Assembly: GCF_054482595.1 (NCBI RefSeq) | Contig: NZ_CM137008.1 | DNA: 64,000 bases | Strand: one strand, 5' to 3' | Notes under the pieces: model-generated | Databases searched by the model: none | Told to the model about the DNA's origin: nothing | The model's input: the letters and a program-made list of their open reading frames with translations, nothing else | Made by a program: the position numbers and the translations under genes | Shown here: piece by piece, positions 22,299-23,838 of the stretch | Layout of the letters: every line of letters starts with the position of its first letter | Numbering within the stretch: position 1 is the first letter of the stretch

Positions 22299-22381
22299 TT
22301 GCAGAAGCCGAGCTGTATGCTGAGGGGTGAACCGCCCCGGGAATCCTGGAGACTAAACTCCCTGAGAAAGAGGTAAACAGA

Positions 22382-22708
22382 ATGACTAAAAATACTCGTT
22401 TTTCCCCCGAAGTCCGTCAGAGGGCGATTCGTATGGTTCTGGAAAGTCAGGGCGAATATGACTCACAGTGGGCGGCAATTTGTTCCATTGCCCCAAAGAT
22501 TGGTTGTACACCGGAGACTCTGCGTGTCTGGGTACGCCAGCATGAGCGGGATACCGGAGGCGGTGATGGCGGGCTCACCACCGCTGAACGTCAGCGTCTG
22601 AAAGAGCTGGAACGTGAAAATCGTGAACTGCGCCGCAGTAACGATATCCTTCGCCAGGCTTCCGCTTATTTTGCGAAGGCGGAGTTCGACCGCCTCTGGA
22701 AAAAGTGA
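22382..22708 (+). CDS. IS629 OrfA
   Basis: 108 aa HTH protein. Confidence 0.85.
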
Positions 22709-23595
22709 TGCCACTGCTGGATAAGCTGCGTAAGCTGTACGGGGTCGGACCGGTATGCAGTGAACTACATATTGCCCCGTCAACGTATTACCACTGTCAG
22801 CAACAGCGACATCATCCTGATAAACGCAGTGCCCGTGCGCAGCGCGATGACTGGCTGAAGAAAGAGATACTGCGCGTATACGATGGGAATCATCAGGTAT
22901 ACGGTGTGCGTAAAGTCTGGCGTCAGTTGTTACGGGAAGGAATCAGGGTAGCCAGATGTACAGTGGCGCGCCTCATGGCGGTTATGGGACTTGCCGGTGT
23001 TCTCCGGGGTAAAAAGGTCCGCACTACCGTCAGCCGGAAAGCCGTTGCCGCAGGCGACCGCGTAAACCGTCAGTTTGTGGCAGAACGTCCTGACCAGTTG
23101 TGGGTGGCTGATTTTACTTACGTCAGCACATGGCAGGGGGGCGTCTATGTGGCGTTCATCATTGATGTGTTTGCCGGATACATCGTGGGGTGGCGGGTCT
23201 CATCGTCTATGGAAACGACATTCGTGCTGGATGCTCTGGAGCAGGCGTTATGGGCCCGTCGACCGTCCGGCACAGTCCATCACAGTGATAAAGGTTCTCA
23301 GTATGTATCGCTGGCCTACACACAGCGGCTTAAGGAAGCCGGATTACTGGCATCAACAGGAAGTACTGGTGACTCGTATGACAACGCGATGGCGGAGAGC
23401 ATCAATGGCCTTTACAAAGCGGAGGTAATACACCGTAAGAGCTGGAAAAACCGGACAGAAGTGGAGCTGGCCACACTCACGTGGGTGGACTGGTCTAACA
23501 ATCGACGATTGCTGGAAAGGCTGGGCCATATCCCACCGGCAGAAGCAGAAAAAGCTTATTATGCTTCCATCGGAAACGATGATCTGGCAGCCTGA
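22705..23595 (+). CDS. IS629 OrfB (DDE transposase)
   Basis: 296 aa; overlaps orfA, typical IS3-family arrangement. Confidence 0.85.
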
Positions 23596-23639
23596 GTTCA
23601 CAGATAAAACACTCTCCAGGAAACCCGGGGCGGTTCAGT

Positions 23640-23838
23640 CTGATGCTTTACGAGCAGTTTGGGGATTTGAAATTCAAATACAGGAACAGGGAGTTCTGGT
23701 GCAGAGGGTACTACGTCGGTACGGTGGGTAATAACACGGCGAAAATACAGGATTACATAAAGTACTAGCTTGAAGAGGATAAAATGGGAGAGCAGTTATC
23801 GATTCCCTATCCGGACAGCCCGTTTACGGGCCGTAAGT
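23640..23838 (+). pseudogene. IS200 tnpA, C-terminal fragment with internal stop
   Basis: Translates to ...LMLYEQFGDLKFKYRNREFWCRGYYVGTVGNNTAKIQDYIKY*LEEDKMGEQLSIPYPDSPFTGRK, matching the IS200 TnpA C-terminus; starts at the IS629 right end; terminal hairpin near 23920..23950. Confidence 0.7.

Follow-up and report, generated by a model that had tools for sequence, protein, structure and literature searches.

The window analysed here, a stretch of 64,000 nucleotides (contig NZ_CM137008.1 of assembly GCF_054482595.1), contains a complete insertion sequence (IS) of the IS629 family that is placed between the remains of two unrelated genes, one for a LysR-family regulator and one for the transposase of an old IS200 copy. 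The following features were delimited with the open reading frame list, Pfam, a repeat search and alignments with sister copies of the IS and with comparator genomes:

21717-22327, minus strand: truncated LysR-family regulator gene, codons 107-309, stop codon at 21717-21719 (open reading frame list, Pfam, comparator alignment)
22325-22327, no strand: left flanking triplet GGG (GGGG over 4 bp), unlike the right flank GTC/GTCT (sequence)
22328-23637, plus strand: complete IS629-family insertion sequence (IS3 family), 1310 bp (terminal TG...CA, inverted repeats, orfA/orfB, alignment with sister copies)
22328-22352, plus strand: left inverted repeat (IRL), 25 nt, 92% complementary to the right one (repeat search)
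22382-22708, plus strand: orfA, 108 aa, with HTH_Tnp_1 (open reading frame list, Pfam)
22663-22779, plus strand: frameshift region, called 'AL1L pseudoknot' in the RefSeq annotation of strain EC11 (converted to window coordinates)
22705-23595, plus strand: orfB, 296 aa, with HTH_21 and the rve DDE integrase core (open reading frame list, Pfam)
23613-23637, plus strand: right inverted repeat (IRR), 25 nt, pairing with IRL (repeat search)
23638-23640, no strand: right flanking triplet GTC (GTCT over 4 bp) (sequence)
23638-23950, plus strand: last 313 bp (3' part, including the right end) of an old and diverged copy of IS200 (aligned to canonical IS200C and to the XJ5.2 full-length allele; Pfam Y1_Tnp)

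The IS begins with TGAACCGCCCCGGG and ends with CCCGGGGCGGTTCA (TGAACC...GGTTCA). As is typical of the IS3 family, its size lies within ~1.2-1.5 kb, its terminal inverted repeats are imperfect, and its ends read 5'-TG...CA-3'. Sequence and annotation further agree on an orfA with a helix-turn-helix (HTH) domain, an overlapping orfB with a DDE/rve domain and a predicted -1 frameshift; an A-rich slippery run, GGAAAAAG, is located at ~22698-22705, where orfA and orfB overlap (22705-22708). The identical sequence in EC11 bears the generic RefSeq name 'IS3 family transposase' and is annotated with a programmed frameshift and a frameshift-associated pseudoknot. Judged by these features, the element is apparently intact and still looks functional.

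The preliminary description had named the element IS629. Its identity to copies labelled IS1203 or IS629 in RefSeq is 94.4-94.8%, and the best other full-length copy, which is unlabelled, is 97.6% identical. In the ISfinder convention, copies of the same IS share about 95% nucleotide identity. Published subtypes of IS629 are 4-5% apart, with IS1203 and IS3411 counted as isoforms (PMC3271280). The window element would accordingly be classed as an IS629-family isoform, for which 'IS629' is acceptable as a family label; the family assignment was upheld, but at 94-97.6% identity the sequence is not that of canonical IS629. With IS629, IS1203 and IS3411 of E. coli and Shigella it has in common the length of 1310 bp, the TG...CA ends, the ~25-nt inverted repeats, orfA and orfB with a -1 frameshift, and sister copies that give 3-4 bp duplications. 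It differs from them in sequence, in its generic RefSeq name and in the missing duplication.

To the left of the IS, the 203 C-terminal codons of a 309-aa regulator are preserved, in which Pfam recognized LysR_substrate only, whereas the intact 309-aa homologue contains both HTH_1 (residues 9-65) and LysR_substrate. The break follows codon 106, and the missing 318 nt encode the HTH domain and a linker. The fragment is 99.5% identical to the intact genes of strain TUM10828 and of ColV plasmids. Intact genes at this level of identity are present in chromosomal islands of TUM10828, S51 and MDR_56 and on ColV-type plasmids, e.g. pAPEC-O2-211A-ColV, where they are adjoined by divergent genes for an ankyrin protein, DUF2877/AllH, fdrA and DUF1116/YlbE. 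Neither the LysR N-terminus nor this ankyrin-AllH-fdrA-YlbE cluster was found within the window. Since it has no DNA-binding domain, the regulator is predicted to be dead, a pseudogene fragment, and the lost neighbouring cluster was presumably its regulon.

To the right, codons ~86-152 of the IS200 transposase gene tnpA follow at 23638-23840 and match positions 80-119 of the Y1_Tnp profile. A complete IS200 comprises ~700 bp and a Y1 transposase of ~152 aa; here only the 3' 313 bp are left, and an internal TAG interrupts the frame at 23766-23768. Over 313-319 nt, the remnant shares ~96% identity with IS200C copies, and it can be regarded as dead. Between the remnant and an autotransporter gene (24187-26874, minus strand) lies a 49-aa open reading frame with a lipoprotein-like signal (..LNAC..; 24008-24157, minus strand). 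This small frame is kept together with the autotransporter gene in all comparators, including plasmids without IS200 (0H23-0H26).

Boundaries of the element and the missing target duplication

The junctions read ...GCTGAGGGG|IS|GTCTGATGC... and contain no 3- or 4-bp repeat. Both boundaries were also obtained from comparators: the intact LysR gene can be aligned as far as 22327/22328, and the alignment with the full-length IS200 allele sets in at 23635-23638, where 3 nt (TCA) are ambiguous. As the comparator homologies end at the same points, the boundaries of the IS do not depend on its inverted repeats alone. The preliminary description had assigned the IS to a span of 22299-23640, which is too wide, the element itself occupying 22328-23637. 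Its observations on the flanks were borne out: the LysR gene lacks the N-terminal HTH domain in Pfam and is open up to the IS end at 22328, the C-terminal half of the IS200 tnpA begins directly after 23637, and there is no target-site duplication at the precise ends, where GGG(G) faces GTC(T). A matching repeat of 3-4 bp, named in that description as the finding that would speak against it, was looked for at these precise boundaries and is absent.

IS629 was reported to generate duplications of 3-4 bp, although matching duplications were present at fewer than half of the sites in O157 genomes (21 of 47; PMC3271280). Two sister copies served as positive controls. In M21170, the sister copy is a simple insertion inside another IS200, at a different position (codon 37), with a 4-bp duplication ATAG. 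In S51, the sister copy is a simple insertion with a 4-bp duplication GAAA. Because closely related simple insertions have clean 4-bp duplications, the missing duplication in the window is meaningful.

A simple insertion whose duplication has since mutated away was considered, as short duplications can decay; nothing further speaks in its favour. The flanks, however, derive from unrelated genes, LysR and IS200 tnpA, each of which continues into its own missing half elsewhere, and their identity of 99.5-100% to the comparators indicates that there was no local decay. This explanation is exceedingly improbable.

Distribution of the joint and the DNA missing beside it

The exact joint was present, at 99.9-100% identity, in 44 of the 5,426 complete E. 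coli genomes that constituted the search set. Seven further genomes contain derivatives of it, five with a nested insertion and two with an inversion. The nested element interrupts the IS at window position 23122 in Santai, YZLc23-1 (about 2.3 kb), HCM-22C-2 and E06, and at 23399 in TUM1880 (about 2.6 kb). Many unrelated E. coli copies of the IS also end at the position equivalent to 23122. The genomes with the joint originated from chickens, dogs, humans, sheep, mink and water. Being common to 44 genomes and seven derivatives, the joint is real and was inherited or spread horizontally. It can serve as a stable marker of this island family in about 51 complete genomes, many of them from avian-pathogenic lineages.

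IS elements are classic sites of mis-joined contigs, and an assembly artefact over the repeated IS had to be considered. The identical joint in 44 independently finished genomes and its derivatives in seven more contradict it, as does EC11, which is 100% identical to the window in this region and has a single copy of the IS, that is, no repeat that could confuse an assembler. There is hardly any probability left for such an artefact; the comparator genomes refute it, as they refute the decayed duplication.

A nearly full-length version of the same IS200 copy was found in five genomes without the joint (XJ5.2, W150, Z1323MEC0001, AH25 and 20AR1039). It has the same private SNPs and the same stop codon as the window remnant and lies upstream of the same small open reading frame and autotransporter gene. 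In AH25, XJ5.2 and W150, DUF1062', HerA', the sgc operon and BREX lie upstream of the IS200; in Z1323MEC0001, DUF1062' and HerA' are found there with other DNA further upstream, and in 20AR1039 the examined part extends to DUF1062'. The region was traced out to the integrase and tRNA-Leu (leuX) in one genome, AH25; the equivalent island of the comparator genomes is at the leuX tRNA locus. The 1.2 kb directly upstream of IS200 are confined to the five genomes without the joint, which means that this DNA is truly absent from every genome that bears it. The single IS copy in EC11 excludes an inversion that involved a reciprocal partner.

The comparison with related genomes lacking the IS at this site, which the preliminary description had proposed, thus identified the lost segments: both flanks continue into their own missing halves, and into different DNA, in genomes without the IS at this site. 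The IS joins two unrelated gene halves without a target duplication, the alternative or intervening DNA is gone, and one copy of the IS is left. The missing DNA is absent and was not moved beside a partner IS, as seen from the flank confined to five genomes, the single copy in EC11 and the absence of the LysR N-terminus from the window. We put the probability at about 0.9 that the window contains an intact IS that marks, within a mosaic E. coli genomic island, the joint of a deletion or recombination. The joint is an ordinary, already known type of scar of IS-mediated rearrangement. It explains the dead LysR and IS200 fragments in this island and the absence of the ankyrin-AllH-fdrA-YlbE cluster and of the DUF1062'/HerA' DNA (and of sgc and BREX, if the ancestor had them), and it matters little beyond annotation. 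In E. coli O157, IS629 copies without duplication and small structural polymorphisms associated with IS629 are similar in that the IS is kept at a joint with flanking DNA missing. They differ from the window type in that the latter occurs outside O157, in avian, extraintestinal and commensal lineages; its joint has considerable age and wide inheritance and is no polymorphism of individual strains.

Simple insertions at this locus would have left two reciprocal junctions, ...GGGAAAAGCAGTC|TGAACCGCCCCGG, in which the 5' half of IS200 is joined to the left end of the IS, and ...GGGGCGGTTCA|GGGTATACAACAGTTG, in which the right end of the IS is joined to the N-terminal side of LysR. Chimeric queries were composed of IRR, GGG and the LysR N-terminal side, and of the IS200 5' half, GTC and IRL. 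They retrieved no reciprocal junction of a simple insertion at this locus from the 5,426 complete E. coli genomes. This result and the different continuation of each flank in the comparators agree with the earlier suggestion of an IS629-associated deletion or recombination instead of a simple insertion. A metagenome scan, in which the 24 nt following GGGATATCT of IS200 were examined for any left end of the IS629 type, yielded none, and intermediates with both halves of IS200 or LysR around the IS were found neither in the 5,426 genomes nor in the metagenome scan. Among the comparator genomes, none had the LysR and IS200 flanks contiguous without the IS.

Several candidates were dismissed. S51 was the sole match to the query of IRR, GGG and LysR; its sister IS is at a different site with its own GAAA duplication, and its LysR gene is intact. 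The query of IS200 5' half, GTC and IRL matched 33 plasmids; in the 25 of them that were listed, about 300 bp separate IS200 from an IS629-like remnant beside a Zn/Mn (metal) ABC-transporter gene, and the 33 plasmids were judged unrelated to the joint from spacing and annotation alone. An apparent combination of LysR and IS1203 in MDR_56 was an artefact of joined nearby BLAST pieces, LysR being intact. In pUTME-14-2, IS200 is located upstream of the IS and does not form the window junction, and the simple insertion in M21170 is the one at codon 37 mentioned above. EA13 and SX12 were considered as ancestral carriers of the right junction alone and turned out to be derived inversions.

In EA13, which was read directly, two inverted IS copies (L016 3110-4419 and 14316-15625; also L011) bracket an inverted segment of ~10 kb (IS3'...sodC...LysR'). 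SX12 was placed with this type by identical BLAST coverage only. Copy 1 of EA13 is flanked by GGG and AAC and copy 2 by AAC and GTC, so that a 3-bp duplication, AAC, is split between the copies. In copy 2, which is mosaic, the first 207 nt have SNPs of the IS1203 type, and the rest is identical to the window IS. The split AAC, the swapped flanks and the mosaic copy together indicate that insertion of a second copy followed by recombination between IS copies does occur in this island. With two inverted copies, swapped flanks and a split AAC, the EA13/SX12 derivatives resemble known IS-flanked inversions between inverted IS copies; the likeness belongs to these derivatives, whereas the window has one copy.

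A 12-bp deletion in IS200 alleles without the IS

The five IS200 alleles with an 'empty site' lack 12 bp (GAAAGGGAAAAG) of canonical IS200C. The right edge of this deletion is 2 bp from the IS junction of the window (equivalent to window positions 23636-23638), i.e. a small locus-specific deletion ends next to the putative former IS end. Among about 7,400 matched IS200 places in about 2,090 records, the deletion occurs in those five genomes only. It probably represents the footprint of an imprecise excision of an IS629-family element from IS200, in which case the five genomes would not be naive. The same comparison makes it fairly probable that the IS was first inserted in IS200 and later lost imprecisely in the empty-site lineage, the right junction being primary and the LysR junction secondary.

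The deletion may alternatively be unrelated to the IS, older than the insertion, with the IS landing 2 bp away by chance. The lack of convincing microhomology (<=1 nt) and of any IS remnant is in line with such a coincidence, and so is the failure to find IS200 interrupted by the IS in the 5,426 genomes or the metagenome scan. Yet the chance of landing within +/-2 bp of the deletion in an element of ~700 bp is roughly 1%, and the deletion is found at none of the other matched IS200 places. Moreover, IS629-family copies insert elsewhere in IS200, as in M21170, so that a site-specific hotspot in IS200 is not apparent. A coincidence is for these reasons unlikely, and an excision footprint is the preferred reading.

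Excision of IS3-family elements and deletions of their flanks, from a few nt to >40 kb, are described in several reports (PMC9943667; bioRxiv 2023.06.07.543989; PMC9397093). The 12-bp deletion beside the putative former IS site resembles the excision with small flanking deletions seen in IEE-promoted loss of IS3-family elements and in the imprecise loss of ISApl1 from Tn6330. It differs from the latter in its microhomology of <=1 nt, 2-4 nt being described for ISApl1. If the excision reading is true, a single IS insertion has met with three fates at this locus in wild E. coli: it was excised and left a scar in the five empty-site genomes, its flank was replaced in the window, and an inversion accompanied by a mosaic IS took place in EA13/SX12. 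The scar and the EA13/SX12 inversion would be tidy natural examples of IS3-family excision and of recombination between IS copies, both already established experimentally. The locus-specific 12-bp scar in a sister allele is the sole element of the locus that we consider mildly noteworthy.

Possible routes to the joint, and the surrounding island

In the sequence of events that we infer, the IS would first have been inserted into the old IS200 pseudogene copy upstream of the autotransporter gene, which would create the right junction IS|GTCTGATG. The second step is the one visible in the comparisons. The DNA to the left of the IS, with ~385-400 bp from the 5' part of IS200 and with the DUF1062'/HerA' region, was lost or replaced; on the other side, the first 106 LysR codons and the divergent ankyrin-AllH-fdrA-YlbE cluster are gone, and the left end of the IS now abuts codon 107. 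Because the new junction is located exactly at the IS terminus, this step may be ascribed either to homologous recombination between two IS copies or to a transposase-dependent deletion of IS-flanking DNA. Both routes leave one IS with the flanks of two sites and thus no target duplication. Which event came first, and whether two copies recombined or one copy caused an adjacent deletion in one step, is inferred, and the data fit both routes.

The leuX-proximal DNA of the five genomes with full-length IS200 restricts the possible ancestors. No LysR module is present there between leuX and IS200; a single intrachromosomal deletion from that arrangement is consequently impossible, and an unsampled ancestor or incoming DNA has to be assumed. 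In both TUM10828 and the window, the LysR module lies on the same side of the epimerase-fucP backbone genes and points in the same direction with respect to them, which makes a tandem ancestor topologically possible, though unsampled.

If two IS copies in direct orientation, inserted in LysR and in IS200 respectively, underwent homologous recombination on one chromosome or through exchange with incoming DNA, the IS would have served as portable homology; we give this route an even chance. It draws on the flank exchange and the mosaic IS of EA13/SX12 in the same island, and the absence of the LysR module from the leuX island of the full-length-IS200 genomes fits an exchange between island versions. 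An independent sister insertion near LysR in S51 points the same way: on the chromosome (L010 7941-9250), this IS lies about 125 bp downstream of the stop codon of the intact LysR gene, in the same orientation and about 740 bp from the position of the window junction. Neither parental insertion, however, was found in the 5,426 genomes or the metagenome scan. Nor can the mosaicism of the window IS be counted in favour of this route. In the sister IS of S51, the first ~490 nt match the window IS and the remainder is IS1203-like; mosaicism is frequent among copies of this group, and no link from it to the formation of the joint can be drawn.

In a one-step deletion, a single IS in IS200 would have attacked the LysR site with its left end through its transposase, and no second copy would be required. 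The position of the new junction exactly at the IS terminus is expected from such an event, deletions beside IS629 that range from a few nt to >40 kb have been described (PMC9943667; PMC9397093), and the orientation of LysR in TUM10828 allows the tandem ancestor on which the deletion would have acted. Against it stand the distribution of the two modules, as no genome has LysR and IS200-autotransporter on one stretch, and the copy-out-paste-in mode of transposition, which does not itself predict such deletions (Chandler and colleagues, bioRxiv 2023.06.07.543989). We regard a one-step deletion as a tentative possibility with somewhat less than an even chance.

A second breakpoint is located past the autotransporter gene, where the homology to the arrangement of XJ5.2, AH25 and EA13 ends at 26925. 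In these three genomes, polysaccharide lyase 8 and a PTS cluster follow the autotransporter gene, and in the window a frameshifted ProQ/FinO gene fragment and then dndBCDE. The homology to TUM10828 begins at 26917 and overlaps the other one by about 9 bp (26917-26925). The DNA phosphorothioation system of the window extends over ~27700-42733 and comprises dndBCDE and dptFGH, the latter (34573-42733) matching TUM10828 at 97.8% identity. In TUM10828, sodC-LysR and dptFGH are arranged in another order than in the window, as if the same modules had been circularly permuted. Left of the joint, two degraded remnants of IS3-family transposase genes are present at 20413-21031 and 11984-13219. Together with fragments of ISL3, IS66, IS91 and IS1, they make the island a dense patchwork of IS debris.
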